DNA from: an uncultured Victivallales bacterium
GTDB taxonomy: Bacteria > Verrucomicrobiota > Lentisphaeria > Victivallales > CAZIVM01
Assembly (NCBI GenBank): GCA_964542845.1
Contig: CAZIVM010000040.1
Location: forward strand, 1 to 17,068
Length of the DNA: 17,068 nucleotides
Direction: 5' to 3'
The notes under the pieces are model-generated. The model made no database searches. It was not told where the DNA came from and saw only the letters and a list, made by a program, of their open reading frames with translations. Shown piece by piece: positions 1-17,068 of the stretch. The translations under genes were made by a program, and so were the position numbers. Position 1 is the first letter of the stretch. The number at the start of each line of letters is the position of its first letter.

Positions 1-100
1 GTTACTGATTCAAATGATAATAACGGCACATTCACATATTAAGCGTGAAGTGTGCTAAATCAACAACTAAGGATTCAACTTAGTTCTGATAAAACAACAA

Positions 101-131
101 AGCCTCGGAAGTGTTCAACACCTCCGAGGCT
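101..131. terminator. Near-perfect long hairpin (agcctcgga-a-gtgtt-c-aacac-c-tccgaggct) flanked by A-run on the left and T-rich tract on the right; candidate bidirectional rho-independent terminator
   Basis: Read directly: 9-bp GC-rich outer stem plus 5-bp inner stem, followed by ctttcctttt on + strand and preceded by aaaacaacaa (U-run for the opposite strand). Confidence 0.4.
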
Positions 132-345
132 CTTTCCTTTTAAAATGATTGATTAAGGGGTTGGGAGCAAATACTTAGGCAACCATTCCTAAATTCAATA
201 TCACATTTAAAAAGCGTATTTGATAATGTCTCAATATCATGAATTAGATATATAACACGAATATATTCCAAACCATTATGAGAGTTCTTCTTTGCTTGTA
301 ATCCAAAGACCTCATCAAAACAAAGCTAACAAACTCTTAAAATAC

Positions 346-382
346 AAATAAAAAAGCTGGACTTGTTTACACAAATCCAGCT
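346..382 (-). terminator. Rho-independent terminator for the minus-strand lipoprotein gene ending at 410
   Basis: Hairpin agctgga-c-ttgt-[ttac]-acaa-a-tccagct (355-382); on the minus strand it is followed by a T7 run (plus-strand aaaaaaa at 348-354). Confidence 0.5.
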
Positions 383-409
383 TTAATCTTTTTGAAAAGA
401 GGAGGTTAA

Positions 410-793
410 TTATTTAACCACGTTTCCAGAGATGTTCACACTGCGAATGCAGAAAATGAATGACCATTCAGATACTTGTGATGTCATATCCAAAACTTTT
501 TTACCACCGAGTTCTTTAGACTTACGAGTCATAATAGGCGCGGTGCTTTGGAGGTTAACAGTATCTTTTAAGAAAGCCAAAGTCCCTGGATTATCAGTAT
601 CACCACTTAATAATGGGAACCAAAGGAAATAGAGACCAGAGTTTTGAACGTTAACGTGAGCGATTTTAGCGCTACCATCGTTAGCAAGTTGTAAATTGTT
701 GATGTAAGGATCTTTCACAACTGTAACAGAAGCACAAGCACTCAACATCGCAGCTGAAGCAACAGCAACTGCCATTAAAAAGAATTTTTTCAT
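410..793 (-). CDS. Small predicted lipoprotein (127 aa), paralog 1 of a tandem pair; family not recognised
   Basis: Six-frame ORF 410..850 trimmed to internal Met (MKKFFLMAVAVASAAMLSAC...) with AGGA RBS 8 nt upstream; signal peptide plus lipobox LSAC; ~40% identical over the core (AHVNVQNSGLYFLWFPLLSGDTDNPGTLAF) to the downstream-adjacent ORF 811..1206. Confidence 0.75.
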   Translation of the reverse strand: MKKFFLMAVAVASAAMLSACASVTVVKDPYINNLQLANDGSAKIAHVNVQNSGLYFLWFPLLSGDTDNPGTLAFLKDTVNLQSTAPIMTRKSKELGGKKVLDMTSQVSEWSFIFCIRSVNISGNVVK

Positions 794-810
794 GATATGC
801 GTCCTTTCCA

Positions 811-1206
811 TTACTTGATTGCGTTTGCGGAAACTTTGTAAGATTTCCATGAGAAGAGGAACGGAATTGGAACCAACAACATCATGCTATTAGGAATAGA
901 AACCATGTCCGTAGCTTGGGTTGCGCCCATCGATTTTGCTTTAGAAGAAACCATGTTTACGGTGCTTTCTAAATCTGTTTTTTCACAGAATGCAATAGAA
1001 CCTGGAGAGGTGCTAGAACCCGTGATTAAAGGGAACCATAAGAAGAACAAACCTTCGTTGGTTGCACTAACGTGAGCAACAGGAGTTCCGCGAGAGGTCA
1101 AAGCTTGTTGGGTCAAGCGTGGAGCATCCACAACCTGAACCGCAGAGCAACCCATCATGCAGCAAACCACTGCAGCCATACCTAAGCTGAGCATTACTTT
1201 TTTCAT
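811..1206 (-). CDS. Small predicted lipoprotein (131 aa), paralog 2 of tandem pair
   Basis: ORF with MKKVMLSLGMAAVVCCMMGCS signal/lipobox, RBS aaaggac upstream; core AHVSATNEGLFFLWFPLITGSSTSPGSIAF aligns with paralog 1. Confidence 0.75.
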   Translation of the reverse strand: MKKVMLSLGMAAVVCCMMGCSAVQVVDAPRLTQQALTSRGTPVAHVSATNEGLFFLWFPLITGSSTSPGSIAFCEKTDLESTVNMVSSKAKSMGATQATDMVSIPNSMMLLVPIPFLFSWKSYKVSANAIK

Positions 1207-1341
1207 TGTAGTCCTTTGGGTTTGAGGTTATCAAGGCAAAAAAACCGTTATTGCCTTCTATTGGTTTACTATACACTTGCTTAGCACAAATGCAAACTTT
1301 TTTATTAGATTTCAGTCAATATTTTATCTTTTTTATCATTT

Positions 1342-2358
1342 TTATAGTTTTTTCGAAGGAATAACCTCAGAAAAACGATATAATTCTTTTATCCCTAATT
1401 TATAATAAGGTTTTTCATCCCAAATATTGCGTTTACCGCGTTCGGAGAAAAATATATCTAATGCGGTGTTCGGATTTTGTTTAGAACGTATTAAAAGACC
1501 GCGCATGTACATTTGCGTGTAAGGCATTGTCCCTTTATCTGTACTACTCACTTCGTATTCCAAAACAGAAAATCCATTGTGTTGACGCTGTTTTGATTTA
1601 ATTTTTTGAACCGTATTACGCGCATTTGAAACAAATCCTTTTTCCATAAAAAACTTAAAAAACTCACTATCACTCTTTTTCGACCACTTTGAATCAAACA
1701 TCATGGGCGCCATTCTTAATATCACGGAGTGATCATTCAACATCGTGTCTGGAATATCAAGACGATATGTCATGTCATAAGCAGCAAACGACATTGGATT
1801 CAACATCAAGTTCCATCGCGAATCTTGCGGTGTAAGCACACGAATCCCTAGTTCCTCATAAGACGATGGACATGAACGCACCTTGAGTTTTCCTCCCACA
1901 CAATCTTCAAAAACTGCGGGAGTATCACGCGTAGCAATCCCCCCCAAATCATGCATCTCTTTCCACAAGTCGCCCCAGTTAAATATGATTGAACGCTCAC
2001 CTTCCTCTGTATAACAAAAATACGAAACATTCATCGGATCTTTGCGTGAAACAGCAAAACCCCCTTTCTCATACACTGCACGTTTATAATTTAACGCATT
2101 GAATGTAATTGGAATATTTAAGGGTTTCACAACCGGCTCGTAATAATAATAGCGTTGATCAGCCGCAACCAAGTTCATCACGCTCGGCATAAACTGCATG
2201 CGTTTGACAACCAAATCGTATCCCATATAAATGCGCGTTTCGTAAACACGCGGAACATCATTACTTATTTCGTCCAGAGGAATTTCCAGACGCCATTCAG
2301 GTGAACTTTGACATCCCATTAACAAAGCCAATGCAACGCCTAACATCCAATTTTTCAT
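1342..2358 (-). CDS. Predicted lipoprotein, 338 aa, unknown function (no recognisable catalytic motif)
   Basis: Long clean ORF, RBS aaggagag upstream of ATG at 2358, N-terminus MKNWMLGVALALLMGC = signal peptide + lipobox; Tyr/Trp/Met-rich soluble domain; co-directional with the two small lipoprotein genes. Confidence 0.8.
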   Translation of the reverse strand: MKNWMLGVALALLMGCQSSPEWRLEIPLDEISNDVPRVYETRIYMGYDLVVKRMQFMPSVMNLVAADQRYYYYEPVVKPLNIPITFNALNYKRAVYEKGGFAVSRKDPMNVSYFCYTEEGERSIIFNWGDLWKEMHDLGGIATRDTPAVFEDCVGGKLKVRSCPSSYEELGIRVLTPQDSRWNLMLNPMSFAAYDMTYRLDIPDTMLNDHSVILRMAPMMFDSKWSKKSDSEFFKFFMEKGFVSNARNTVQKIKSKQRQHNGFSVLEYEVSSTDKGTMPYTQMYMRGLLIRSKQNPNTALDIFFSERGKRNIWDEKPYYKLGIKELYRFSEVIPSKKL

Positions 2359-2554
2359 TCTTAACTCTCCTTTATGTAGGTTTTAGATATGACCAAATTT
2401 TTTACTAATATATCCCTATTCAACACAAAATTCAAGCAAAAACACCACATTAAATTAATTAAATTCACGCACCGCCCTAACACAATCCTTACAAACCAGA
2501 ATTATATTAATGTTATCAAATTCACATCTCATCAATATACATTGGAGAAAATTA
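2359..2554. promoter_or_regulatory. Divergent promoter region between the lipoprotein cluster (-) and pstC (+); contains three AAATTCA(A/C)(G/A) direct repeats and a weak Pho-box-like 18-mer
   Basis: Repeats aaattcaagc (2428-2437), aaattcacgc (2461-2470; 33 bp = 3 helical turns later), aaattcacat (2518-2527); atgttatcaaattcacat (2509-2526) matches E. coli Pho box consensus CTGTCATAAAACTGTCAT at about 12/18 positions. AT-rich, no ORF. Confidence 0.3.
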
Positions 2555-4126
2555 ATGCAAAAATCACGAAATTCACGTCACTCAACGGATCGCTATTTTA
2601 AATGGATTGCGACTGCTGGAGCCCTTACGCTCGTTGCCATCATGGCGGGTTTATTTATTCAGCTGGTCTTAAACGCCCTTCCCGCATTTGAAATTTTTGG
2701 ATTCGAGTTTTTCACATCGACCGAATGGAATCCCGCGCAAGAACAATTCGGTGCGCTCCCTGCCATTCGTGGAACACTATTAACCACGTTTATTGCGATT
2801 CTTATCGGCGTCCCCTCTTCGTTCTTCATTGCTTTTTTGTTAACCGAACTGCTCCCCAGTTGCATTGCAAAACCGATTGGACACGCGGTTGATTTACTTG
2901 CCGCTATCCCATCCATTATTTTCGGTATGTGGGCATTTATGGTATTAATTCCGCTCATGCAACAGTACGTGCAACCTGCATTGCAAACCTCAATCCCAAT
3001 TCATTTAGGCGAAAAACCTTGTTATCATCAAACCGAAAAGGGAGTTCATTTATCAGGCAACAAAGGTTACATGCAAACGCCTCATATTTATTATCTCGAT
3101 TTTGAACAAACCATGACTCTTGCCTTACGTTTTACCCCACAAATTACATCGTCTGCACAGTCAATATATTATAAAGGAGAAGCGGGAATTCAACTCTCGA
3201 TTACACCTTCAGGTCATCTCAATTTTAATGGGGCGATTAGTGAAACAAAAATTGAACATAATGTAACACAAACTTTGATTGCGTCCATCGAAAACAACAC
3301 GCCTCGTCTGTGGATTAACACGCAAGAGACCCTACTTAACACCGCGTTATTTCAAATGCCACAAAATACAACATCGCCTCTCTGGATTGGAAAAAATAAA
3401 GATGGAAATTATCTTAAAGGCAATCTAGAATGGTTGCGATTCTACAATTCAAGTCTTACCCCCAATGAAATTGACGACACATTATTTCAAACCACAGAAG
3501 CGGCAGAAGATGCTATCGATGAACACCGTCTAGAAGTTGCGTGGGAGTTTAGTGGCGAAAACCAAGATAACTGCATCGATCTCGCCTCCTCTCTCCCGCT
3601 CTCTTTTAACACAAAAAAAATCGAACTCAATTTTCTAAAAGAGTCTCTTTTTGCAGGTGATCTCACAGGAAGTGGTACCCTTTCTGCAGGACTGATTCTT
3701 GCCTTCATGATTCTCCCTTTCATCACCTCCGTGATGCGCGATATTTTTATCATGACTCCGCCCGTGATTAAGGAATCCGCCTACGGAATGGGGGCAACCC
3801 CATGGGAAACCACCCTTCATATTACACTCCCGTATGGGATGCAAGGTTTTTTAGGTGCAATATTTTTAGGATTAGGTCGGGCACTCGGCGAGACGATGGC
3901 TGTTCTTTTTATCATTGGGAATGCGCCCTACGCTGGGAGTTCATTATTTGCCCCAGCCACAACCATTGCGTCCACTTTAGCCAATAGCTTTGGTGAAGCA
4001 GATGGTATTTTCAAAAATGTATTATTTGCGTTAGGTCTCATTCTCTTATTCCTCTCGTTTGGGATACAAATCATTGCACAACGTTGGTTAAATAATGTAA
4101 AGAAACAAAATGGAGGTGGTTTATGA
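2555..4126 (+). CDS. pstC: Phosphate ABC transporter permease PstC with a ~220-aa insertion (LamG/ConA-like) in the second periplasmic loop; 523 aa
   Basis: ORF 2510..4126 trimmed to Met at 2555 (GGAGA RBS 8 nt upstream). N-terminal 146 aa and C-terminal 157 aa align with E. coli PstC (TM1-3 ... LAAIPSIIFGMW ... and TM4-6 with EAA loop SVMRDIF..ESAYGMGATPWE..GRALGETMAV). Residues ~147-366 have no PstC counterpart and contain LWIGKNKDGNYLKGNLEWLRFYNSSLTPNEIDD, typical of Laminin_G_3/ConA-like lectin fold. Confidence 0.9.
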   Translation: MQKSRNSRHSTDRYFKWIATAGALTLVAIMAGLFIQLVLNALPAFEIFGFEFFTSTEWNPAQEQFGALPAIRGTLLTTFIAILIGVPSSFFIAFLLTELLPSCIAKPIGHAVDLLAAIPSIIFGMWAFMVLIPLMQQYVQPALQTSIPIHLGEKPCYHQTEKGVHLSGNKGYMQTPHIYYLDFEQTMTLALRFTPQITSSAQSIYYKGEAGIQLSITPSGHLNFNGAISETKIEHNVTQTLIASIENNTPRLWINTQETLLNTALFQMPQNTTSPLWIGKNKDGNYLKGNLEWLRFYNSSLTPNEIDDTLFQTTEAAEDAIDEHRLEVAWEFSGENQDNCIDLASSLPLSFNTKKIELNFLKESLFAGDLTGSGTLSAGLILAFMILPFITSVMRDIFIMTPPVIKESAYGMGATPWETTLHITLPYGMQGFLGAIFLGLGRALGETMAVLFIIGNAPYAGSSLFAPATTIASTLANSFGEADGIFKNVLFALGLILLFLSFGIQIIAQRWLNNVKKQNGGGL

Positions 4127-4989
4127 TTCAAGCACCCATGCGATCTATTTTTCGACGTCAATTCAAAAACTATATCATGATTCTTATCAGTGGAATTGCT
4201 ACGTTGATTGCCGTCGGGATCTTATTCTGGATTATCGCCACCATTATCTATAAAGGATTCCCTGCCATTCATTGGAATTTTTTAACCCAAGTTACCGCAC
4301 CGAGCACGGACCCTGAAGGCGGCATCGCCAACGCCATTTTAGGGACCCTTATGATTATTTGTGTCGGATCATTTATTGCGCTTCCTTGCGGTTTACTCGG
4401 CGGGATATGGCTTTCTGAATTCGGTCGAAGCAGTCATATAGGACACTGGGTCCGTTTTACAGCGAACGTTATGATGGGGATCCCCTCCATTGTGATAGGA
4501 CTTTTTGTTTATGCCATTTTAGTCGTGCCCATGGGATGCGCATCGGGGTTTGCGGGTTCGGTAGCGATTGCGATTTTGATGATTCCCATCGTGATGCGAG
4601 TTACCGAAGATATGTTATCATTAGTCCCTAACACCTTACGCGAATCAGCCTTAGCGTTAGGAATGACGCGATGTCGAACCACATTTGTGATTTTATTTCG
4701 TTCGGCAAAGAGCGGGTTAATCACAGGAATACTCCTTTCAATTGCCCGTGTAGCAGGTGAAACAGCGCCGTTACTTTTTACCGCACAATGTTCTCAATAT
4801 TGGCCTTCAATAAGTTCATTTTTCAGAAGTCCAACAGCGAATATCACGGTCACAATCAACGAATACTTTGGCAATGACCCTAGTCCAATCATGACTGAGC
4901 GTGCATGGGGCGCTGCCCTTGTCATCCTCATCATTATTCTCACCACCAATCTTTCTCTACGTTTTTGCTTCAAAAATAAAACTAACTAA
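4123..4989 (+). CDS. pstA: Phosphate ABC transporter permease PstA
   Basis: 288-aa ORF, start ATGA overlapping pstC stop, GGAGG RBS; 6-TM permease with EAA-type loop ([13 protein letters not shown]..). Confidence 0.9.
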
Positions 4990-4999
4990 GGATTCTATT

Positions 5000-5821
5000 A
5001 TGTCAGAACTTCCGCCACTGAAAAGTCTTACACTCGAACAAATGCCACCGCCACCCACCCTCTCAACTCAACCTAAAATTATCGCTAAAGATCTCAATTT
5101 TTACTACGGTGATCATCAAGCATTAATGAATAATAATCTCACCATCTATGATAAAACCGTAACAGCGGTAATTGGACCTTCAGGTTGTGGGAAGTCGACC
5201 CACCTGAGAACCTACAATCGTATTTTTGAGCTCTACAAGGATTTTCGTGCGGATGGCGAAATTCTTATTGATCACGACAATATTCTCTCGCCTGAGATTA
5301 ATCTTTTGGAATTACGACGTAATGTGGGAATGATTTTTCAAAAACCAACCCCTTTTCCTATGTCGGTATTTGACAATGTCGCTTACGGACTCAATCTTCA
5401 CTACAAAATGGGGAAAAGTGAACTCCAAGATCGTGTCGAACACGCCTTGCGCGGTGCCGCTTTATGGGACGAAGTCAAAGACAAACTGAAAAAACCCGGA
5501 ATGGCTCTCTCAGGCGGTCAACAACAACGCCTTTGTATCGCGCGCGCTATCGCTGTGGAACCCGAAATTCTCCTCATGGATGAACCCACATCGGCAATTG
5601 ACCCTGTCGGCACAGGAAAAATTGAGGACTTAATTTCCGAACTTGCAGAAAAGTTCACCATCGTCATTGTCACGCATAACATGCAACAAGCCGCCCGCAT
5701 CTCCGATTACACTGCATTCTTCTATCAAGGATACATTGTAGAGTACGATAAAACCGACATCATCTTTACCCATCCCAAAAATCTTCGCACAGAATCGTAT
5801 ATTCGCGGTCATTTTGGTTGA
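5000..5821 (+). CDS. pstB: Phosphate ABC transporter ATP-binding protein PstB
   Basis: ORF 4901..5821 trimmed to MSELPP (AAGGA RBS at 4988-4992). Walker [10 protein letters not shown], signature LSGGQQQRL, Walker [13 protein letters not shown]; strong identity to E. coli PstB throughout; extra Pro-rich ~15-aa N-terminal extension ([14 protein letters not shown]). Confidence 0.92.
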
Positions 5822-5877
5822 TTTTCTCAAAAAATGTAGTATGTTAATGATAACCCCCTTAATTGAAGGAATAATTT

Positions 5878-6537
5878 ATGAGCGCACATCTCATTAAAGA
5901 AATCGAAAAATTACAAAAACAACTTGCCGAACTTGCAACATGCGTTGAAGAAAGTTTACGTCAAGCCCTGCATTCGCTAACCACAGGAGATGAAAATCTC
6001 GCGAACATTGTCATCGAAAATGATGATTACATTGATCGTAAAGAGATTGCATTGGAAGAGGAATGTCTAAAAATATTGGCACTCTATCAACCTGTGGCTT
6101 CCGATTTACGCTATGTTATTACTTGTCTTAAACTCAATACAGAACTCGAACGTATCGGCGATCTTGCCGTTAATATCGCCAAACGCGCAAGTGCCATGCA
6201 TAGTTTAAATCAAGAAAATATCAATATCGATTTTTCAACCATGGGGCGACGGACACAAGAATTATTACAGGAAACCCTTGATGCATTGTTCAAAATTAAC
6301 AAAGAAACAGCCGAAAAAGTCATCGCCAAAGACGACGAAATCGATGAAATGCATCATCAAAATACCCTCAAAATTGCTAATCTCGCACAACAATACCCTA
6401 AACAGACTTTTCCGCTTACCTATATTTTAGGCGTCAGTCGCAGTCTTGAACGCATCGCGGATTCATGCACGAACATCGCCGAAGACGTCATTTATATGCT
6501 CAATGGCGCCATTGTCAGACACCAAAACAAGGAGTAA
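5878..6537 (+). CDS. phoU: Phosphate signalling negative regulator PhoU
   Basis: 219-aa ORF with two PhoU repeats (ELERIGDLAVNIAKRA / SLERIADSCTNIAEDV), AAGGA RBS. Confidence 0.9.
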   Translation: MSAHLIKEIEKLQKQLAELATCVEESLRQALHSLTTGDENLANIVIENDDYIDRKEIALEEECLKILALYQPVASDLRYVITCLKLNTELERIGDLAVNIAKRASAMHSLNQENINIDFSTMGRRTQELLQETLDALFKINKETAEKVIAKDDEIDEMHHQNTLKIANLAQQYPKQTFPLTYILGVSRSLERIADSCTNIAEDVIYMLNGAIVRHQNKE

Positions 6538-6543
6538 CACTTT

Positions 6544-7224
6544 ATGAAAGCCCACATTCTCTGCATCGATGATGAACAAGATATTTTAACGGGTCTACGA
6601 TTTACCCTTGAAAAAGAGGGTTATCATGTCGCCACCGCAACTTCAGGTGAAGAAGGTCTTGTCAAAATGCGCGAAAACATGCCCGATTTAATTGTGTTGG
6701 ATCTCATGTTGCCGGGCAAAGATGGTCTTACTATTTGCAAAGAAATTCGTGCCGACTCCAAATTATCTCATATTCCTATTATTATGCTTACCGCAAAGTC
6801 AACCGAAATTGATGTGGTCTTAGGGCTTGAGATGGGAGCAGATGACTATCTCCCTAAACCCTTCTCTAATCGTGTCTTAGTGGCACGCATCAAATCACTT
6901 TTACGCCGTCAATCCACCACTGAATCACAAGAAAACACCATCACACGAGGACCTCTTGTCATTAACCCTGGTCGACGCGAAGTGTTTTATAAAGGCGAAT
7001 CTATCGAATTAACTTACACAGAGTTTGAACTCCTTGCCATGCTTGCAAAGCGCCCAGGGTGGGTTTTCTCGCGCGCCCAAATTGTGAACAACATTAAAGG
7101 GGGCGATTATCCCGTTACCGAGCGATCTGTCGATGTTCAAGTTGTCGGACTCCGCAAGCGTTTAGGTGAAGCAGGCGATTGTATCGAAACCGTTCGCGGT
7201 GTTGGCTACAAATTCAAAGGCTAA
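6544..7224 (+). CDS. phoB: Phosphate regulon response regulator PhoB (OmpR family)
   Basis: 226 aa; receiver domain (DDEQDIL...LIVLDLMLPGKDG..MLTAK) plus winged-helix (LTYTEFELLAMLAKRPG...RGVGYKF); AAGGAG RBS inside phoU end. No phoR downstream. Confidence 0.9.
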   Translation: MKAHILCIDDEQDILTGLRFTLEKEGYHVATATSGEEGLVKMRENMPDLIVLDLMLPGKDGLTICKEIRADSKLSHIPIIMLTAKSTEIDVVLGLEMGADDYLPKPFSNRVLVARIKSLLRRQSTTESQENTITRGPLVINPGRREVFYKGESIELTYTEFELLAMLAKRPGWVFSRAQIVNNIKGGDYPVTERSVDVQVVGLRKRLGEAGDCIETVRGVGYKFKG

Positions 7225-7225
7225 C

Positions 7226-7273
7226 GCACACACTTCGTGTGTTGAGCTGTGCGCTGTCGCGCACTCACTAAGT
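7226..7273 (+). repeat. Copy A of a ~45-bp double-hairpin repeat (cacac-ttc-gtgtg ... gtgcgc-tgtc-gcgcac ... tcactaagt), immediately 3' of phoB
   Basis: Read directly; near-identical inverted copy at 7525-7570 and diverged direct copy at 7322-7369. Confidence 0.7.
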
Positions 7274-7274
7274 A

Positions 7275-7306
7275 AATTAGACTTCTTCTAATTATTTATA
7301 TCTTTT
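7275..7306 (+). terminator. Weak AT-rich hairpin (aattaga-cttct-tctaatt) followed by atttatatctttt; possible phoB terminator
   Basis: 7-bp stem with only one G:C pair followed by a T-rich tract; weak on its own, may act with the GC-rich hairpins of repeat copy A. Confidence 0.25.
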
Positions 7307-7321
7307 CGCTATTTCATATCT

Positions 7322-7369
7322 CGCACTTCGTGTGTTGAACTGCATGTTATCGCATGCTCGCTGGGTAAA
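7322..7369 (+). repeat. Copy B of the repeat (diverged): first hairpin conserved, second hairpin replaced by gcatg-ttatcg-catgc (compensatory, structure kept)
   Basis: cacttcgtgtgttgaactg identical to copies A/C; second stem has different sequence but retains palindromic stem-loop; tail tcgctgggtaa vs tcactaagtaa. Confidence 0.6.
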
Positions 7370-7524
7370 CCGTGGTTGCTACTTTGTATAGGCGTATACT
7401 TAAAATTTGTATCATAAAATTGACATAATATGATTATTATGTTTAGTTTTTACTTCTTTATGTGGGTGAACGGAAAAAAATATTTAAGTGATTTAAGTAT
7501 AATAATCACAAAAAGCACAATATG

Positions 7525-7570
7525 CTTAGTGAGTGCGTGACAGCGCACAGTTCAACACACGAAGTGTGCA
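7525..7570 (-). repeat. Copy C of the repeat, inverted orientation, immediately 3' of the tRNA-Tyr terminator
   Basis: Reverse complement tgcacacttcgtgtgttgaactgtgcgctgtcacgcactcactaag matches copy A at ~42/44 positions. Confidence 0.7.
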
Positions 7571-7605
7571 TAAAAAAACTCAGAAATGCAAAAGCAAATC
7601 TGAGT
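7571..7605 (-). terminator. Rho-independent terminator of tRNA-Tyr
   Basis: On the minus strand: actcaga-[13 nt loop]-tctgagt followed by TTTTTTTAT, starting ~12 nt after the tRNA CCA end. Confidence 0.6.
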
Positions 7606-7616
7606 GTATTTATTAA

Positions 7617-7701
7617 TGGTGGTGGGAGGTGGATTCGAACCACCGAAATCGTAGATAGCAGATTTACAGTCTGCCCCCTTTGGCCGCTCGGGAATCCCAC
7701 C
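7617..7701 (-). tRNA. tyrT: tRNA-Tyr (anticodon GTA), 85 nt with long variable arm and encoded CCA
   Basis: Reverse complement reads GGTGGGATTCCCGAGCGGCCAAAGGGGGCAGACTGTAAATCTGCTATCTACGATTTCGGTGGTTCGAATCCACCTCCCACCACCA; near-identical to E. coli tRNA-Tyr in acceptor, D-arm, anticodon loop CUGUAAA and T-loop GGTTCGAATCC. Confidence 0.93.
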
Positions 7702-7745
7702 AGCTTGCGCAATCTTTAAGGGATATTGCAAATTAATGTATCTTT

Positions 7746-7773
7746 AATATATCATCCTATTTAAAAAAATCAA
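7746..7773 (-). promoter_or_regulatory. Candidate sigma70 promoter of tRNA-Tyr (-35 TTGATT, 16-nt spacer, -10 TATATT) with AT-rich UP-like region upstream
   Basis: Read on minus strand ~45 nt upstream of the mature tRNA 5' end; spacing and hexamers acceptable; no experimental support. Confidence 0.3.
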
Positions 7774-7812
7774 ATTATTTATGAAAAAAAAGTTGTTTTT
7801 TTTCTAAATGAC

Positions 7813-7841
7813 TTGTATTTTCTCATATGCGCGTGTACATT
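7813..7841 (+). promoter_or_regulatory. Possible promoter for the NfeD/flotillin operon (-35 TTGTAT, 17 nt, -10 TACATT)
   Basis: Hexamers by eye in the divergent region between tRNA-Tyr and the yqiJ-like gene; weak match. Confidence 0.2.
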
Positions 7842-7905
7842 TAATAATAGAATTTGAGGTTGTGCTTCAAAATTACAAACAACTTTCCATACACAAGGAG
7901 GATGC

Positions 7906-8487
7906 ATGTTAGATCAACTTAATCAATTTTTTGCTGGCGATACCATGGAAGTCGCTTATAAATCCATGGCAATCATCGGAACAGCATTATTCCTCTTATC
8001 CACGTTAATGACTTTTATTGGGAGCTCAACTGATGTCGATGTAGATATCGATAATGATGGCGCCATTGATATTCATCACGATACAGGTTTTGCAGATCTT
8101 AAAATTTTCTCTGCAAAAACCATTATCGCCTTTGTTATGTTTGTGGGATGGGGGGGTATCGTCTTCGGAAACACTGTCTACGGCTTTATTGGCGCTTTTG
8201 CACTCGGAATCTTCATGATGTTCGTGACCGCCTACTTAATTGTCCTAATCTTAAAACTTCAAGAATCTGGCAATATCAACGATGAAGCTTTCGTGGGACT
8301 TACAGGGATTGTTTACATGACCATTCCTGGCGATCGCGCTCATGAAGGAAAAGTACAAGTCACAACAAAATCAGGCATTCGCGAAGTTGCAGCGCTTGCA
8401 GATAAAAAAATAGAAACAGGGACACCTGTCAAAATCAAGTCCAAACACGCCGAGGGCTGTTTTATCGTCGACACCATCGATTCATAA
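7906..8487 (+). CDS. yqiJ: NfeD-like inner-membrane protein (YqiJ family), partner of the downstream flotillin
   Basis: 193 aa; AAGGAGGA RBS; Asp/His-rich N-terminal segment (DVDVDIDNDGAIDIHHDTGF) as in E. coli YqiJ, hydrophobic TM core, C-terminal beta-rich OB-like tail; located directly upstream of an SPFH/flotillin gene as in yqiJK. Confidence 0.78.
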   Translation: MLDQLNQFFAGDTMEVAYKSMAIIGTALFLLSTLMTFIGSSTDVDVDIDNDGAIDIHHDTGFADLKIFSAKTIIAFVMFVGWGGIVFGNTVYGFIGAFALGIFMMFVTAYLIVLILKLQESGNINDEAFVGLTGIVYMTIPGDRAHEGKVQVTTKSGIREVAALADKKIETGTPVKIKSKHAEGCFIVDTIDS

Positions 8488-8533
8488 CTCAATATTTTAA
8501 TACTAAAACTAACTAAACTAAAGGATTTTAATT

Positions 8534-10135
8534 ATGGAGAATTACATGATCTACTTAGGAATTGGAATTGTGGTTTTTATTTTCATTACCACGCTCGTTA
8601 TTGCAAGCCGTTATCGCAAATGTCCTGCCGACCGCATTCTTGTGGTTTATGGTAAAACAGGGCAAGGTTCAGCGAAATGTATCCACGGGGGTGCAACTTT
8701 CGTTTGGCCCGTCATTCAAGACTACGGATTTTTATCATTGCGCCCATTACAAATTGAGGTCAATCTCAACAATGCGTTGTGTAAACAAAATATTCGTATC
8801 AGTGTCCCTTCAATCTTTACTGTAGCGGTTTCCACAAATCCAGCAACCATGCGTAATGCTGCGGAACGTCTTTTCGGAACAACACCTGAATATATGGCAG
8901 GGCTTGTCAAAGATATTGCTTTTGGTCAATTACGTCTTGTCATTGCCTCACTCACAATTGAAGAGATCAACAGTGACCGCGAAAACTTCCTCCGCGAAAT
9001 TGAAAAAAATGTCGCGACCGAATTAAATAAGATTGGTTTACAACTCCTCAACGTGAATATCACTGATATTATGGATGAATCGGGTTATATTGACGCGATT
9101 GGTAAACGCGCTGCAGCCGAAGCGATCAATAAAGCTAAAGTTGAGGTTGCTGAAGAGACTCGTAAAGGGGGAATCGGTGAAGCGGAAGCACGTTCTGCAC
9201 AACGTATTCGCGTTGCTCAACTTGAAACCGATGCCCAAACAGGGGAAGCGATTACTGAGCGCGACCGTCACGTGGCGATTAAACAAGCCGAAGCAACCGC
9301 GCAAGTGGGTGAAGCTGAAGCGGATAAAGGACGTCGTATTGCCATGATGCAAGCGGATGCAGCGGCTCAAACAGGAGAAGCTCAAGCTGACCGTGACCGT
9401 CGTATTGCCATTAAAGAGGCAGATTCAACAGCTGTTCAAGGGGAAAATGCAGCGGCTATTGAAATTGCTAAGTCCAATGCACTTCGTCAAGAAGCCGAAG
9501 CAGAAGCGTATCGTCGTTCTGAAGCCGCTAAAAAAGTTGCACTTGCGATGATTGAAAAAGCACAATTTGAAGCGGATGAACAAGCACAAATTTCACGTCA
9601 AAAACTCGAAACAGCCAAACAACGTGCTGAAATCGTTGTCTCTGCTGAAATTGATAAACAAAAAGTTGAAATCAAAGCCGAAGCCGAAGCTGAAAAACGC
9701 CGTCGTGAAGCCCGCGGGGAAGCGGACGCCATCTTTGCGCGTTATGATGCCGAAGCGCGCGGTAATTTAGCCATCTTGAATGCAAAAGCGGAAGGTTTCA
9801 ACCGCATTATCCAAGCGTGTGCAGGGAGTTCTGACGCTGCATCAAAAATGTTGATGATTGAAAAACTCGAAGAGTTGGTCAAACTCCAAGCCGAAGCAAT
9901 CAAAAATATCAAAATCGACAAAGTTACAGTTTGGGATTCAGGCGCATCAACACCTGACGGCAAAGGTTCAACCGCTAATTTCTTATCTGGCATGGTCAAG
10001 AGCTTACCTGCGCTTCACGATGTTGCAGGAATGGCCGGGCTTGAACTTCCTAAGTTCTTAGGCGAAGTGAAAGAAGGAGACATTGCCAATGCCTCCACCG
10101 CTAAACCCGACGAACCCGTTATTTCAACCAAATAA
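8534..10135 (+). CDS. yqiK: Flotillin/SPFH (band-7) family protein, YqiK-like, with long Ala/Glu-rich repetitive coiled-coil
   Basis: 533 aa; N-terminal TM, SPFH core (RILVVYGKTG...IEEINSDRENF), then ~300 aa of EA-rich heptad repeats (EAEAEAYRR, AEAEAEKRRREARGEADAIFARYDAEARGN); AAGGA RBS. Confidence 0.85.
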   Translation: MENYMIYLGIGIVVFIFITTLVIASRYRKCPADRILVVYGKTGQGSAKCIHGGATFVWPVIQDYGFLSLRPLQIEVNLNNALCKQNIRISVPSIFTVAVSTNPATMRNAAERLFGTTPEYMAGLVKDIAFGQLRLVIASLTIEEINSDRENFLREIEKNVATELNKIGLQLLNVNITDIMDESGYIDAIGKRAAAEAINKAKVEVAEETRKGGIGEAEARSAQRIRVAQLETDAQTGEAITERDRHVAIKQAEATAQVGEAEADKGRRIAMMQADAAAQTGEAQADRDRRIAIKEADSTAVQGENAAAIEIAKSNALRQEAEAEAYRRSEAAKKVALAMIEKAQFEADEQAQISRQKLETAKQRAEIVVSAEIDKQKVEIKAEAEAEKRRREARGEADAIFARYDAEARGNLAILNAKAEGFNRIIQACAGSSDAASKMLMIEKLEELVKLQAEAIKNIKIDKVTVWDSGASTPDGKGSTANFLSGMVKSLPALHDVAGMAGLELPKFLGEVKEGDIANASTAKPDEPVISTK

Positions 10136-10158
10136 ATAACTACTTAACATTTTCATCA

Positions 10159-10190
10159 AGCGCCAAGCCACAAACTTGGCGCTTTTTTTA
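10159..10190 (+). terminator. Rho-independent terminator after the flotillin gene
   Basis: aagcgccaag-[ccacaaa]-cttggcgctt followed by TTTTTTTA. Confidence 0.7.
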
Positions 10191-10329
10191 TTTAAGACCT
10201 TCTCGTTTTTCCCTTAAAAACAGGGTTTTAAAATCGATATTAAAATAACGATTGATTCAATAGAAAAATATCCATTTTTGCTCGTATTTTAAAAGATGAA
10301 TTTTTTCGTTAAAACTCAACTTAAAATGG

Positions 10330-10357
10330 TTGAAATTTTCACGATGTGTATTATATT
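10330..10357 (+). promoter_or_regulatory. Candidate sigma70 promoter for the rnf operon (-35 TTGAAA, 16 nt, -10 TATATT)
   Basis: Hexamers read by eye ~50 nt upstream of rnfA start in an AT-rich 270-bp intergenic region. Confidence 0.35.
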
Positions 10358-10408
10358 ATTAATGTATTTTTTTCATCTACATACCAAACACAAAAACCCG
10401 AGGTGCTT

Positions 10409-11014
10409 ATGGAGTACTACTTAACGATGATGGTGGGCGCGATTCTCGTGAACAACTTTGTCTTATCCAAGTTCTTAGGAATCTGCCCTTTTCTTGGCGT
10501 ATCCAAACGAACTGAAACCGCATTAGGCATGGGAGGTGCTGTCATTTTTGTGATGACCATCGCTTCATGTGTCACATCCCTAATTTATCACTACCTACTC
10601 TCGTATGAGTTTACCGTAGGCGAAAACAAGATGAACTTAGTTTTTTTACAACTTCTAATTTTCATCTTAGTGATTGCTGCACTGGTACAAATGGTTGAAA
10701 TCATTTTACAAAAGGTAAGCCCCAAACTCTATGATGCGTTAGGAATTTTTCTTCCGCTCATCACCACAAACTGCGCCGTTCTAGGCGCCGCCCAACTCAG
10801 CGTAAAATCGGGTTACAGTGTCTTGGACTCAACCCTCTTTGGCTTCTTTTCTGCTATCGGATTTGCATTGGCATTAGTCCTCTTTTCCAGTATCCGTGAA
10901 CGACTCGCCTTTGCTAAAGTCCCACGCGCGATGGAAGGTACCCCTGTTGCTTTAATTACAGCAGGGATTTTAGCGATGGGTTTTATGGCATTTAGTGGTT
11001 TAGTGAAAGTTTAA
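10409..11014 (+). CDS. rnfA: Ion-translocating oxidoreductase complex subunit A (RnfA/RsxA)
   Basis: ORF 10346..11014 trimmed to MEYYLTMMVGAILVNNFVLSKFLGICPF (GAGG RBS), which aligns with E. coli RsxA [28 protein letters not shown]; conserved LPLITTNCAVLG and IRERLA motifs. Confidence 0.9.
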   Translation: MEYYLTMMVGAILVNNFVLSKFLGICPFLGVSKRTETALGMGGAVIFVMTIASCVTSLIYHYLLSYEFTVGENKMNLVFLQLLIFILVIAALVQMVEIILQKVSPKLYDALGIFLPLITTNCAVLGAAQLSVKSGYSVLDSTLFGFFSAIGFALALVLFSSIRERLAFAKVPRAMEGTPVALITAGILAMGFMAFSGLVKV

Positions 11015-11023
11015 GGAGTTGAT

Positions 11024-11893
11024 ATGGAAAACTTACTTATATTTGCAGGGGTTGCACTTCTTGCAGCTGCCGTCACGGGGGCAATTCTCGGAGGTGCAAT
11101 TGCAATCATTGCCCAAAAATTTGCTGTCGAAAAAGATCCACGCATTGATGAAGTGATCGATTTATTACCTGGGGCTAATTGTGGCGGATGTGGTTTTGCT
11201 GGGTGTGGCGATATGGCCAAAGCACTTATACTGGGTAAAATCAATGATCCAGCGAAATGCCCTGCCGCCTCTAACGACGCTGTAGAGAAAATCTCAGAAG
11301 TGTTAGGGTTAATTTCAGAACCCGGCATTAAAAAAGTTGCGGTAGTGGCATGTGGAGGAAACCATGATATGGCGAAAGAGTCAGTGCGTTATAATGGCGT
11401 GGCTGACTGTAAATCGGCTCTCATTGTTCAAGGGGGAACGAAAGGATGTCGATATGGGTGTTTAGGTTACGGCACTTGTGCGCATGCGTGTCCATTCAAT
11501 GCCATTGAGATTAAAAACGGACTCGCCATTGTGCACCCCGACTTATGTGTAGGATGTGGAAAGTGTGTTGAGACATGCCCGCGTAAACTCATTGCGTTAC
11601 GTCATGCGGATGCAGAAGTCCATATTTATTGTAGTTCCCCCGCCAAAGGTGCCGACAAACGCAAAGTATGTAAAGTTGCCTGCATTGGATGTCGCAAATG
11701 TGTCAAAGCTGCTGAAGAAGGTCAAATTGAAATCAAAGGAACCTTAGCCGTGGTGAATTACGCCAACGCACCGAAAGCTGAAATTGTTGAAAAATCAGCA
11801 TGCCCCATGCACTGCATTGGTTTGGCACAAGACTACAAAGCAATTGGTGTTATCCCTGAGAAAAACGAAGCAAACAACGAGGTATCCGCATGA
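11024..11893 (+). CDS. rnfB: Rnf complex subunit B (RnfB/RsxB), long form with additional ferredoxin-type 4Fe-4S domains
   Basis: 289 aa; N-terminal TM helix, CGGCGFAGC cluster motif, then at least three CxxCxxCxxxCP-type motifs (CVGCGKCVETCP, CIGCRKCV, CPMHC). Confidence 0.9.
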   Translation: MENLLIFAGVALLAAAVTGAILGGAIAIIAQKFAVEKDPRIDEVIDLLPGANCGGCGFAGCGDMAKALILGKINDPAKCPAASNDAVEKISEVLGLISEPGIKKVAVVACGGNHDMAKESVRYNGVADCKSALIVQGGTKGCRYGCLGYGTCAHACPFNAIEIKNGLAIVHPDLCVGCGKCVETCPRKLIALRHADAEVHIYCSSPAKGADKRKVCKVACIGCRKCVKAAEEGQIEIKGTLAVVNYANAPKAEIVEKSACPMHCIGLAQDYKAIGVIPEKNEANNEVSA

Positions 11894-13251
11894 AAAAAAT
11901 AGCGCTCCCTAACATTATAGGTAAATTTCCTGGTGGACGCAGCATTCATCAAGGCGAAGAACTCTCTAATCAATTCCCTGTACGTACGCCCCCCCTTTAT
12001 GATAAATACATTGTGGCAGTGCCCCAAAATATTGGGAAACCCCCTCAAATGATTATCGCTAAAGGCGATAAAGTTTTACGGGGTCAACTCATTGCAAAAG
12101 CAGATGGTTTTGTCTCTGCAAACCTACACGCACCCACCAGTGGCACGATCGAAGATATTATCGAGATTCCAAGTGCAACAGGCCCACAAGTTCCAGCGAT
12201 GGTGATTGTTGCCGATGGTGAAGATACGCCCGCGCAACTTCTTGAGCCTATTGAAAACTGGTTAGAATGCGATCCCAAAGTCATTTTAACACGCGTTCAA
12301 GAAGCAGGACTCGTTGGAATGGGTGGCGCGTCATTCCCGACCCATGTCAAACTCTCACCTCCACCAGAAAAACCCATCGACATATTGATTATTAATGCGG
12401 CGGAATGTGAACCTTATTTAACAGCAGATGAACGCGTGATGCTTGAAAATGCAGAGATGGTTGCAAAAGGAATTGCAATGTTTGCCCGTATTTTAGGTGT
12501 TCGTAATGTTTTAGTGGGTGTTGAAGATAACAAGATGTCGGCTATTCTCAAACTGAAAGAGTCATGCGCGATGTACGGCACGACAGTTGTCGAACTCCCC
12601 GTGCGTTATCCTCAAGGTTCTGAAAAACAACTTATCTATGCACTCACCCATCGAAAAGTTCCTGCGGGCGGACTCCCCATGGATGTCGGTGTTGTGGTGC
12701 AAAATGTGGGGACTGCATTTGCATTGGCCGAAGCGGTGATTTTAGGGAAACCGCTTTATGAACGCATCGTAACCGTTACAGGTGAACAAGTGGTGAATCC
12801 AGGAAATTGGAAACATCGTATTGGCACCCCTATCTCAGAAGTCCTTAAACTTGCAAGAGGCGTTAAAAACCCTGTATGCAAAGTTATTTTAGGGGGGCCT
12901 ATGATGGGCTTTGCGCAACGCTCTCTAGATGCAACAATCTGTAAAAACACCAGTGGCGTTCTTGTCTTAGACGAAACCATTGCCAAACAATACACCTCCG
13001 AACCCTGTATTCGATGTGGGCGTTGCGTTGATGGATGCGTGATGAATCTCTTGTGCTGTACGATTAGTGCGGCGGTCGATAGCAACGATTTTGAAATGGC
13101 GGAACAACTTCATGTCATGGACTGCGTCGAATGTGGATGCTGCGCTTACATGTGCCCTTCATTCCGTCCATTAGTTCAACACATGCGTCGCGCAAAAGGC
13201 GAAATTCTCGCACAACGTCGCAAAGCAGCAGAAAATAAAGAAGGAAAATAA
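11890..13251 (+). CDS. rnfC: Rnf complex subunit C (RnfC/RsxC), NADH/FMN-binding with two 4Fe-4S motifs
   Basis: 453 aa; GMGGASFPTHVK, IINAAECEPYLTADERVM, MQNVGTAFA and CIRCGRCVDGC / CVECGCCAYMCP align closely with E. coli RsxC; start overlaps rnfB stop (ATGA). Confidence 0.9.
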   Translation: MKKIALPNIIGKFPGGRSIHQGEELSNQFPVRTPPLYDKYIVAVPQNIGKPPQMIIAKGDKVLRGQLIAKADGFVSANLHAPTSGTIEDIIEIPSATGPQVPAMVIVADGEDTPAQLLEPIENWLECDPKVILTRVQEAGLVGMGGASFPTHVKLSPPPEKPIDILIINAAECEPYLTADERVMLENAEMVAKGIAMFARILGVRNVLVGVEDNKMSAILKLKESCAMYGTTVVELPVRYPQGSEKQLIYALTHRKVPAGGLPMDVGVVVQNVGTAFALAEAVILGKPLYERIVTVTGEQVVNPGNWKHRIGTPISEVLKLARGVKNPVCKVILGGPMMGFAQRSLDATICKNTSGVLVLDETIAKQYTSEPCIRCGRCVDGCVMNLLCCTISAAVDSNDFEMAEQLHVMDCVECGCCAYMCPSFRPLVQHMRRAKGEILAQRRKAAENKEGK

Positions 13252-13252
13252 T

Positions 13253-14353
13253 ATGTCAGATCAACCCTCAATCATTTTACCCAACCCCGAACACTTAATA
13301 GCGAGTAGTTCGCCTCATATTCACGACGATGGCAAAGCACAAAGCGTTCAACGCATTATGCTTTGTGTGATTCTCGCACTTCTTCCTGCTTGCGGTGCGG
13401 GGATTTACTATTTCGGTATTCAAGCACTTTATACCCTTCTTCTTAGTGTAGCAGGGTGTGTATTTTTTGAATGGATTTGGGCGTATGTAACCAAACAAAA
13501 GAAGCAAACCATTAACGACTTCTCTTGCATTGTGTCAGGAATCCTCCTCGGAATGAACCTCTCGGCAAACGTTCCATGGTGGATTGCACTCGTCGGGGCA
13601 TTTGTTACGATTTGGATTGGAAAGATGCTCTATGGCGGCATCGGTTATAACCCATTCAATCCAGCGATTGTCGGACGCGTCTTTATCCTTCTCTCGTTTC
13701 CAAGTCAAATGACCACTTGGTTTTGGCCACGAACCTACACTACTCAGATGATTAATAATATGATTACATCCCCTACGCCAGTTGTCGTGAGCGAAACCAT
13801 GCCTGCTGAACTCATTGTCGGGGCAACCCCACTTGGCTTAGTTCATAAAGCCGACTTAGCCTCCCTTCAACCCGGTGTCCTTTCTGATTCTGCGTATTGG
13901 GACTACTTTCTAGGGAATATGCCCGGATGTTTAGGCGAAACCAGTGCCATCGCTATTTTGATTGGCGGACTCTTCCTCATCATGCTTCAAATCATTAAAT
14001 GGCAAGTCCCTGTTGCCTTTTTAGGGACCATCGCAATCTTTACGGGTATCATTCACTTTTGCGACCCCACCATGACGCCAGATCCTTTATTTCATATTCT
14101 CACGGGAGGCGCAATGTTAGCGGCCTTCTTTATGATTACAGATATGGTCACAACGCCCGTTACAACCTCAGGCGCCATTATTTTTGCTGTCGGCTCGGCC
14201 ATTTTGACCGTAGTCATTCGTGTTTGGGGCGGTTTCCCCGAAGGTGTAAGTTTCTCAATCCTCTTAATGAATGCATTAACCCCATTGATTGACCGTTACA
14301 CCAGACGTCGCCCCTTTGGATATCGTAAACCTGTTAAAGGAGGTGCCAAATGA
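13253..14353 (+). CDS. rnfD: Rnf complex subunit D (RnfD/RsxD)
   Basis: 366-aa polytopic membrane protein, position and size match RnfD; conserved GG..NPFNPA, TPLG motifs. Confidence 0.88.
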   Translation: MSDQPSIILPNPEHLIASSSPHIHDDGKAQSVQRIMLCVILALLPACGAGIYYFGIQALYTLLLSVAGCVFFEWIWAYVTKQKKQTINDFSCIVSGILLGMNLSANVPWWIALVGAFVTIWIGKMLYGGIGYNPFNPAIVGRVFILLSFPSQMTTWFWPRTYTTQMINNMITSPTPVVVSETMPAELIVGATPLGLVHKADLASLQPGVLSDSAYWDYFLGNMPGCLGETSAIAILIGGLFLIMLQIIKWQVPVAFLGTIAIFTGIIHFCDPTMTPDPLFHILTGGAMLAAFFMITDMVTTPVTTSGAIIFAVGSAILTVVIRVWGGFPEGVSFSILLMNALTPLIDRYTRRRPFGYRKPVKGGAK

Positions 14354-15060
14354 GCGCCAATAAACCCTCTTTAGTTAACTTAGCGATTCGACTCGCTCTT
14401 TTTGCGGCTATTGCGGCCATTGTACTTGCGGTCACCGATCGCCTCACCTTGCCTGCACGCATTGCCACTCAAGAAGGTGTCGAAAACAACGCCATCAAGT
14501 TGGTTTTGCCCGACTTCGAAAGAACCTCTTCTACTTTCTATATTAATGAAAAGGGAGAACCCTGTTTTGAAAAACCTTTCGACAACGCATGTGCTTTCAC
14601 CCCGGCATGGAATCAAAATAAACTCGTAGGCTTTGCATGCAAAGGAACGAGTAATAAAGCGTATGCAGGGAACCTTACAGTGATGTTTGGTTTAGAAATT
14701 GATGGGACAGTAGGGGTTGTTTCTGTCATTGCACATAATGAAACCCCCGGACTTGGGACCATTGAAACCAATCGTCAAAAACAAAAAACAATCTACAATC
14801 TTTTAGATACCGATACAGAAAAAGTGGTTCCCAACGCATATCTCGATCAGTTTAATGGTAAAAAAATTACCTCGATCGAAGAATCTTTTGCATGGAAAAT
14901 TAAAAAAGATGGTGGTAGTTTTGAATTCAAAGGAGGCGCTACAATGAGTATGCGCGCCATCACAGATGCTGTTTATGAAACGGCACGCACGTTCATTGCA
15001 AATAAAGAATCCATTATCCAGTTTATTCAAAAAGAAAACCCTAATATGGAGATACAATAA
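14350..15060 (+). CDS. rnfG: Rnf complex subunit G (RnfG/RsxG), FMN-binding
   Basis: 236 aa; N-terminal TM anchor; FMN-attachment motif GGATMSMRA (S/T-GAT); ATGA overlap with rnfD. Confidence 0.88.
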
Positions 15061-15746
15061 TGAGTCAACTTACTAACTTTACCAAAGGATTATGGCGCGA
15101 AAATCCCGTGCTTGTTCTTTTATTAGGGATGTGCCCAGCACTTGCAACAACATCAAGCGCATTAAATGGTTTGGGAATGGGTATTGCAACACTATGCGTA
15201 CTGGTTGGCTCAAATACTGTGATTTCGTTAATCAAACCTTGGGTTCCTGCACAAATACGTATCCCCTGTTATATTGTTGTGATTGCCACTTTTGTGACAG
15301 TTATCGACTTATTAATGCAAGCTTATGCCCCTGTTGAAATCTATAATGCGTTGGGTATCTTTATTCAACTTATTGTTGTCAACTGTGTTGTTTTAGGTCG
15401 CGCAGAAGCCTTTGCAAGCAAAAACACCGTGTTTTCATCCATTATCGATGGGATAGGCATGGGCGTAGGTTTTACATTTGCACTCGTGCTTTTAGGCGGA
15501 CTCCGCGAGTTTACCTGTGCAGGAACGATTTTTGAGATTAAAATCATCACAGAATGGTCTCCAGATGCAGCGAATAGCTTAATGACACAAGCCCCAGGTG
15601 GCTTTATCATGTTAGGGCTTATTCTTGCAGCAATCAACTGGCATAATCATCGTAAAGCGGCCAAAGAAGGTCGAATTTATACCCCCCCTGCTGAACTTAG
15701 TTGTCGCAATTGCAGAATCTGTAATCTCGACGACATCAACTCTTAA
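15060..15746 (+). CDS. rnfE: Rnf complex subunit E (RnfE/RsxE) with unusual Cys-rich C-terminal tail
   Basis: 228 aa; [31 protein letters not shown] align with E. coli RsxE; last 20 aa end in ...[19 protein letters not shown] (CxxCxxC), absent from E. coli RsxE. Confidence 0.88.
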
Positions 15747-15764
15747 ATATAAGGATTTACTACC

Positions 15765-17018: not shown

Positions 17019-17022
17019 ATGA

Positions 17023-17053
17023 TAGCTCCAAATGATTTGGGGCTATTTTTTTA
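17023..17053 (+). terminator. Rho-independent terminator ending the rnf-thiG-GNAT transcription unit
   Basis: tagctccaaa-[tga]-tttggggcta (one G:U wobble) followed by TTTTTTTAT, 5 nt after stop codon. Confidence 0.7.
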
Positions 17054-17068
17054 TGTAGAAAAAGTTTG

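Follow-up and report, generated by a model that had tools for sequence, protein, structure and literature searches.

The phosphate importer PstSCAB is the universal high-affinity phosphate scavenger and a sensor of the Pho regulon, and its full structure has become available only in 2026. A stretch of 17,068 nucleotides from an uncultured Victivallales bacterium (contig CAZIVM010000040.1 of assembly GCA_964542845.1; hereafter the window) encodes a pst operon in which the permease PstC comprises 523 amino acids, some 220 of which form an insert. In an earlier, sequence-only reading this insert was taken for a lectin-like domain facing the periplasm, and it was proposed that the domain might replace or recruit the binding protein PstS, for which the operon holds no gene. 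The locus raises the question of what the insert is, where it came from and whether the transporter could dispense with PstS. Here, we report that a LamG_3 jelly roll stands in place of the P2 loop of this PstC, an anatomy of which we are practically certain. On the evidence, the feature is more likely an accessory than a new principle of transport.

A jelly roll in place of the P2 loop of PstC

The longest pstC open reading frame (ORF) spans 2510–4126 of the forward strand (538 amino acids). The ATG at 2555 is the likely start, as a GGAGA Shine–Dalgarno sequence lies 6 nt upstream and homologues begin at the matching place; its 523-residue product is the database protein P0001. The protein scores 270.1 bits against the PstC equivalog model of NCBIfam (TIGR02138; cutoff 196.45), in a match that the insert breaks into two stretches, and has the six transmembrane (TM) segments, the selectivity and gate residues for inorganic phosphate (Pi) and the pstA, pstB and phoU partners of a PstC; the narrower enterobacterial PstC model NF008435 is not reached (274.6 versus 502). 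phmmer aligns residues 13–143 with residues 17–147 of E. coli PstC (PDB entry 9k3s, chain B; 9k3s_B) and residues 364–511 with residues 159–308. Because E. coli PstC is aligned to these flanking blocks only, residues 147–366 have no PstC counterpart; they substitute for an 11-residue loop (E. coli 148–158). The length of the protein, the likeness of its flanks to E. coli PstC and the boundaries of the insert are all as the sequence-only reading had given them.

Hydropathy analysis places all six TM segments outside the insert, where the maximum 19-residue Kyte–Doolittle value is 0.46; the hydrophobic segments of the N-terminal half cover residues 15–48, about 66–104 and 111–139. Both termini of PstC are rich in lysine and arginine, and the insert is net acidic (26 D+E versus 15 K+R). 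In E. coli PstC, TM4 and TM5 flank the coupling helix, which is in contact with PstB (PMC12976172); the segment preceding TM4 is therefore periplasmic and the insert corresponds to loop P2. The insert is accordingly placed in the TM3–TM4 loop, as originally proposed, and is predicted to be translocated to the periplasm. In the AlphaFold (AF2) model the PstC core has a predicted local distance difference test score (pLDDT) of >90, and the full-length model matches E. coli PstC (9k3x_B) with a TM-score of 0.86 (target-normalised), a gap of ~207 columns remaining.

The residues that serve transport in E. coli are retained. By phmmer alignment, R442, E446, T447, M448, F452 and A476 correspond to E. 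coli R237, E241, T242, M243, F247 and A272, and N477 and E481 correspond to N273 and E277, which contact PstS from loop P3. Arg237 is responsible for Pi selectivity in E. coli, and the periplasmic gate residues have been defined in the same structure paper (PMC12976172). In PstA, R220, Q236 and W238 of the E. coli protein are kept, while F237 is replaced by Y and N235 by S.

Pfam Laminin_G_3 (PF13385) matches residues 168–306 of P0001 with an E value of 2.2e-11 (44.6 bits, gathering score 27.6), covering positions 2–150 of the 151 in the model. The segment LWIGKNKDGNYLKGNLEWLRFYNSSLTPNEI, which the sequence-only reading had singled out as the C-terminal strand motif of LamG_3 domains, does align to ordinary LamG_3 repeats at their C-terminal strands. 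When a profile of the insert was run with HMMER over 1.84 billion representative proteins, 5371 proteins matched at E <= 0.001; nearly all of the best 150 are 1000–7800 amino acids long and were matched in several stretches, and Pfam finds 5 and 10 Laminin_G_3 stretches in the two giants that were scanned. A Foldseek search of the PDB with the insert model returned 36 matches at E <= 0.001, every one of them a concanavalin A-like jelly roll by its description, including the LamG domain of PAPP-A, pentraxins, CBM40 of NanA, domain 4 of AbnA, trans-sialidase lectin domains and the LG domains of neurexin, agrin and perlecan. Neither Pfam nor Foldseek matched the insert to PBP_like_2 or SBP_bac; only LamG and jelly-roll matches were obtained. 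The AlphaFold models of the insert are beta-rich, with pLDDT 70–87 in the central strands, <50 at both ends and a mean of 54 over the whole domain, a low to moderate confidence that arises because the alignment holds just two sequences there. Judged by sequence and modelled fold together, the insert is a LamG_3 (concanavalin A-like) jelly-roll domain, in agreement with the earlier assignment.

Distribution, descent and origin of the insert

P0001 is a singleton cluster from one 17-kb contig of a metagenome-assembled genome (MAG), and a look-up of its exact sequence found it on no other contig, which might raise the suspicion of an assembly chimera or a decaying pseudogene. The architecture recurs, however, in four other independent assemblies at 48–56% full-length identity, so that divergent PstC proteins share the same insert; the reading frame is unbroken, and both a complete operon and the catalytic residues have been retained. 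Moreover, no compositional break was seen at the insert across the window, and no direct or inverted DNA repeats were found flanking it. We consider the probability of an artefact or a pseudogene to be negligible.

Two further carriers are known. P0002 (524 amino acids; PF13385 and PF00528) is 56% identical to P0001, has its insert at the same site and was recovered in identical form from the assemblies of three independent samples (loci L001–L003); it is the only other top match with this architecture among 5.8 billion cluster representatives. P0169 (522 amino acids; locus L009, from a fourth sample) emerged from the HMMER profile scan, and its insert, at the same site, is 30% identical. The three inserts are 216–221 residues long. 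No further carrier was found among ~15 billion proteins, the GTDB species genomes and the JGI metagenomes; this census is mainly that of the exhaustive HMMER scan (best 150 of 5371 matches), as the word-index search has gaps: the insert alone gave no match there, its parent included, and a three-member full-length profile did not return P0169. The remaining close PstC relatives have 300–335 residues, and those with names belong to MAGs of Lentisphaeria, Victivallales and Victivallaceae. In the literature search, PstC and LamG were found together in no paper. The LamG-bearing PstC is a very rare architecture and, as had been supposed from the sequence, an undescribed one.

Over shared PstC core columns, the three carriers are 71.5, 63.1 and 59.5% identical to one another and at most 58.9% identical to any canonical PstC, and in a neighbour-joining tree built from these columns they form one clade. 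Their monophyly means a single acquisition: the insert is old, entered PstC in the common ancestor of this small clade and has remained in frame since. Synonymous sites are saturated among the carriers (proportion of synonymous differences, pS, 0.72–0.80), and yet the 660-nt insert contains neither a stop codon nor a frameshift. The proportion of nonsynonymous differences (pN) is 0.49–0.52 in the insert versus 0.21–0.27 in the TM core; as the synonymous rate (dS) is saturated, the ratio of the nonsynonymous rate (dN) to dS is uninterpretable, and pN against pS and the retention of the frame were used instead. Since frame and length have been kept while pN exceeds that of the core, the insert appears to be under purifying but relaxed selection.

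The boundaries of the insert suggest a source. It starts past the usual first LamG_3 strand (a segment of the LVAYWxFDE type), and its end, RLEVAWEFSGENQD..., aligns by BLASTP with the first strand of the following repeat in a tandem LamG_3 protein, P0172, in an alignment that spans the repeat junction without interruption. As a profile, the tail by itself yields no significant match (best E 0.43). Of the 28 weak matches to this profile, 15 nevertheless fall in register at LamG junctions (14–22 residues after a LamG core or 5–30 residues before one) versus 1.6 expected, and none of 5000 randomisations reached 15. The period of tandem LamG_3 repeats, ~203–216 residues, is near the length of the insert. 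We infer that the insert is one out-of-phase period captured from a tandem LamG_3 gene. Because it is only 24–27% identical to any LamG_3 repeat, no donor can be named, and the missing flanking repeats and compositional break leave no trace of the capture mechanism. As the first strand is missing at the N-terminal end and a first-strand-like segment is found at the C-terminal end, the insert may fold into a circular permutant of the jelly roll, with both ends meeting at the loop. It would represent a clean case of phase-shifted domain capture from a tandem-repeat gene.

PstS and the role of the domain

That the operon has no pstS, as noted from the sequence, was borne out by tblastn and Pfam, which detected none in any frame of the window, and tblastn detected none in L001–L003 either. 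In all three types of canonical relative examined (L004/5, L006/7 and L008), pstS lies directly upstream of pstC. These absences favour the proposal that the lectin module stands in for PstS or serves as the receptor of the substrate, be it phosphate, polyphosphate or a phosphorylated glycan, in which case the importer would need no binding protein. A separately encoded PstS was nevertheless found in the most divergent carrier: the order in L009 is pstC(insert)-pstA-pstB-phoU-pstS-ppx-ppk. The L009 PstS has a signal peptide, is 44–45% identical to canonical Lentisphaeria PstS and contains GAGASFPAP, SMGSS and RADGSGTT, which we take to be the usual phosphate-binding motifs. In the window itself, the PstS-contact and gate residues are conserved, among them the counterparts of N273 and E277 in PstC and of Q236 and W238 in PstA, together with the Pi-selectivity arginines; the acidic insert is ill-suited to an anion receptor, and its fold is that of LamG rather than of a binding protein. 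In bacteria generally, moreover, pstS is often unlinked from the pst operon. Replacement of PstS, as first suggested, is not supported by these findings and in our view very unlikely.

In E. coli PstSCAB, PstS docks via loops P1 and P3 of PstA and PstC, P2 not being named as a contact, and PstS has its C-lobe on the PstC side (PMC12976172); P1 and P3 are likewise important for docking in MalG (PMC6906923). Given the pstS of L009, the conserved contact and gate residues, docking through P1 and P3 and a Pst variant that carries inserts in P1 and keeps pstS (described below), the transporter very probably still depends on PstS. We also lean towards regarding pstC-pstA-pstB-phoU as a working phosphate importer whose PstC bears an accessory periplasmic domain. 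In L009, where ppx and ppk follow pstS, the importer is linked to polyphosphate metabolism in one direction of transcription.

We propose that this protein would import Pi by alternating access in the normal way, the jelly roll being a periplasmic addition. Phosphate would be handed over by a separate PstS docked on the P1 and P3 loops, while the LamG domain would rise from P2, the loop least involved in docking, beside the PstS site on the PstC side. The domain is probably a protein or glycan contact module. Most likely, it would assist the transporter in catching PstS or keeping hold of it, as MalF P2 does with the maltose-binding protein, a role favoured because MalF P2 is the nearest functional precedent. 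The assignment of the domain as an aid to PstS docking or retention is tentative, and its probability falls short of even.

Several observations weigh against this proposal. The insert is modelled at pLDDT 30–85, and its placement relative to the PstS site is undefined in the model. In none of the three insert-bearing locus types, known here from contigs rather than whole genomes, is pstS upstream of pstC, and from two it is missing; its displacement or loss could reflect an altered relationship with PstS. The insert has also evolved approximately three times faster than the core (dN 0.79–0.89 versus 0.25–0.33), the P0169 insert lies below Pfam detection, which suggests relaxed constraint, and the residues invariant in the three inserts belong mostly to the fold core (KGE, FNGA, PL..G), with no conserved pocket apparent.

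This rapid divergence, the degenerate LamG motifs of P0169 and the lack of a conserved pocket are also in keeping with a tolerated passenger, namely a piece of one of the numerous LamG-repeat genes captured in frame in the loop least relevant to docking, where it folds harmlessly and has no role in transport. The silence on P2 as a PstS contact agrees with this explanation, and so does the tiny size of the clade, which gives no sign of a selective sweep. A neutral stretch of 660 nt, however, would be expected to gain stops or indels, whereas the inserts of three lineages still have open frames and can be aligned over their whole length despite synonymous saturation, with a length constant within 5 residues, and the export and folding of 220 extra residues come at a cost. 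A passenger is possible but doubtful; were the domain one, its value would be confined to protein evolution.

The company that the domain keeps has suggested other partners. Its structural neighbours include carbohydrate-binding modules (NanA CBM40, AbnA domain 4 and the trans-sialidase lectin domains), its sequence relatives are giant multi-LamG surface proteins, and L009 has adjoining GH2 glycosidases, with ppx-ppk downstream. The domain might hence bind another envelope component, such as a glycan of the cell wall or outer membrane, or a phosphatase in the periplasm, thereby positioning the importer or coupling it to the release of organic phosphate. We consider this unlikely: LamG_3 domains are functionally heterogeneous, no ligand-site residues are conserved and no neighbouring phosphatase or glycan gene is common to the three loci. 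A functional receptor element, either a permanent tether for PstS, which would turn the importer into a quasi-fused scavenger of high efficiency, or a trap, at the mouth of the transporter, for a phosphorylated polymer or glycan, is given the same low credence. Were it real, it would constitute a second, lectin-based route, independent of MalF P2, for coupling substrate capture to a type I ATP-binding cassette (ABC) importer, and it would be tied to the disappearance of pstS from its place upstream of pstC in each of the three carriers.

Genomic setting and comparison with known systems

The features of the window, together with those of two related loci, are collected in Table 1. The gene order of the pst operon with its terminal response regulator recurs in L001. 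The pstB ORF opens with GTG at 4901; the product from the ATG of Table 1 fits its relatives, the L009 PstB also having 273 residues. A motif, AAATTCAC(G), occurs three times (starts 2461, 2518 and 2569) within 2452–2577, around the pstC promoter and start, and could be a candidate site at which the PhoB-type regulator, the product of the last gene of the operon, binds. Upstream of pstC, the two tandem paralogous lipoproteins share the motif GL(Y/F)FLWFPL(L/I)(S/T)G, and neither they nor the third lipoprotein have any match in Pfam or NCBIfam. The membrane protein downstream of the tRNA gene has no Pfam match and is presumably NfeD-like, as judged by position and sequence. The Rnf-type genes were named rnfA-B-C-D-G-E by us from their Pfam domains, an assignment that is provisional. 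This region is ordinary housekeeping context, and no mobile elements lie near pstC. In the canonical Lentisphaeria operon, an uncharacterised ORF of 187–195 amino acids stands between pstS and pstC (L004, 5401–5964; L005, 5377–5964); on comparison, the 192-residue ORF upstream of pstC in L001 is unrelated to the 187-residue ORF of L004.

Table 1. Features of the window (positions 1–17,068) and, where a locus is given, of related loci
Feature	Position	Strand	Description
Small lipoprotein	410–850	-	Tandem paralogue
Small lipoprotein	811–1206	-	Tandem paralogue
Lipoprotein	1342–2358	-	338 amino acids; divergent from pstC
pstC	2555–4126	+	523 amino acids; permease of phosphate ABC importer with domain insertion; TIGR02138, 270 bits
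PstC N-terminal half	2555–2992	+	TM1, P1 loop, TM2, TM3; phmmer, hydropathy, pLDDT >90
P2-loop insert	2993–3652	+	220 residues (147–366); without counterpart in 57 canonical relatives or E. coli PstC
LamG_3 jelly-roll core (by sequence and model)	3056–3472	+	Residues 168–306; Pfam PF13385, profile search, Foldseek
Insert tail	3473–3652	+	Residues 307–366; helix, linker/first-strand-like segment, conserved I-x-L-N...LF return into PstC loop; low-confidence structure
PstC C-terminal half	3653–4126	+	TM4, EAA/coupling helix, TM5, P3 loop, TM6; phmmer 364–511 versus E. coli 159–308
pstA	4123–4989	+	288 amino acids; canonical length, insert-free; TIGR00974, 265 bits; aligned with E. coli PstA 20–294
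pstB	5000–5821	+	ATPase, 273 amino acids from ATG 5000; TIGR00972, 373 bits
phoU	5878–6537	+	Pfam PhoU, E 2.5e-46
Response regulator	6544–7224	+	OmpR/PhoB type; operon end; Pfam Response_reg and Trans_reg_C
tRNA-Tyr	7617–7701	-	Anticodon GTA; in 680-bp gap downstream of response regulator
Membrane protein	7906–8487	+	
SPFH/flotillin protein	8534–10135	+	533 amino acids; middle long, repetitive, Ala/Glu/Gln-rich
Rnf-type cluster	10346–17018	+	Six genes, then thiG and GNAT acetyltransferase
pstS-ppx-ppk	L009, 14077–18923		pstS downstream of phoU, ppx and ppk next
pstC	L010, 3615–4952		P1-insert variant
pstA	L010, 4949–6226		P1-insert variant

Compared with E. coli PstC (PDB 9k3s, 9k3x and 9k3y; PMC12976172), the present protein is the same six-TM type I permease: its coupling helix falls between TM4 and TM5, R237, E241, the gate, N273 and E277 are all represented and pstA-pstB-phoU stand at its side; it differs in having a 220-residue LamG domain where E. 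coli has a P2 of ~11 residues, and in that pstS is not adjacent. With the Laminin_G_3 repeats of giant proteins, the insert shares ~150 residues of similarity, including the C-terminal motif ...G.N..F.G.ID.(V/I)R(I/F)YN..L...E(I/V), and the jelly-roll fold, but it is a single copy in the loop of a membrane protein, with boundaries shifted by about one strand. As in the substrate-binding domain fusions of the OpuA/GlnPQ type, an extracytoplasmic domain is covalently joined to the permease; those, however, are binding proteins fused at a terminus, whereas here a lectin fold is inserted in a loop and L009 retains a separate PstS. A MalE-MalF fusion of Bdellovibrio, cited in PMC6906923, belongs to the same group of fused binding proteins.

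A second, rare Pst variant comes from the same PstC neighbourhood, also has large inserts in periplasmic loops and keeps pstS upstream. It differs in that its inserts are in loop P1, are of other sequence and occur in both PstC and PstA: P0075 and P0095 PstC (441–445 amino acids) have a P1 insert of ~126 residues, and L010 PstA (425 amino acids) has one of ~130 residues at the equivalent position. The two pseudo-symmetric P1 loops thus occupied contact PstS in E. coli. None of these P1 inserts has a Pfam match.

The closest functional parallel is MalF P2, an immunoglobulin-like domain in the TM3–TM4 periplasmic loop of MalF, which remains bound to MalE over the entire cycle, with an affinity in the micromolar range, and is said to be peculiar to the maltose system (PMC6906923). 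MalFGK2 and the present PstC have in common a folded domain of ~180–220 residues in a periplasmic loop of the permease, by the docking site of the binding protein. The two domains are unrelated in sequence, and the likeness is one of analogy, not homology: MalF P2 is immunoglobulin-like and sits in the first loop of the core (we take the TM3–TM4 loop of MalF to be P1 of the six-TM core, since MalF has two extra N-terminal helices), whereas the present domain is of the LamG type and sits in core loop P2. That P2 tolerates a domain of 220 residues should be useful for engineering or tagging. Few type I ABC importers have a folded domain in a permease loop, and a natural, deeply conserved PstC with a lectin-fold domain by the PstS site offers an independent test, beside MalF, of periplasmic add-ons that tune the capture of binding proteins.

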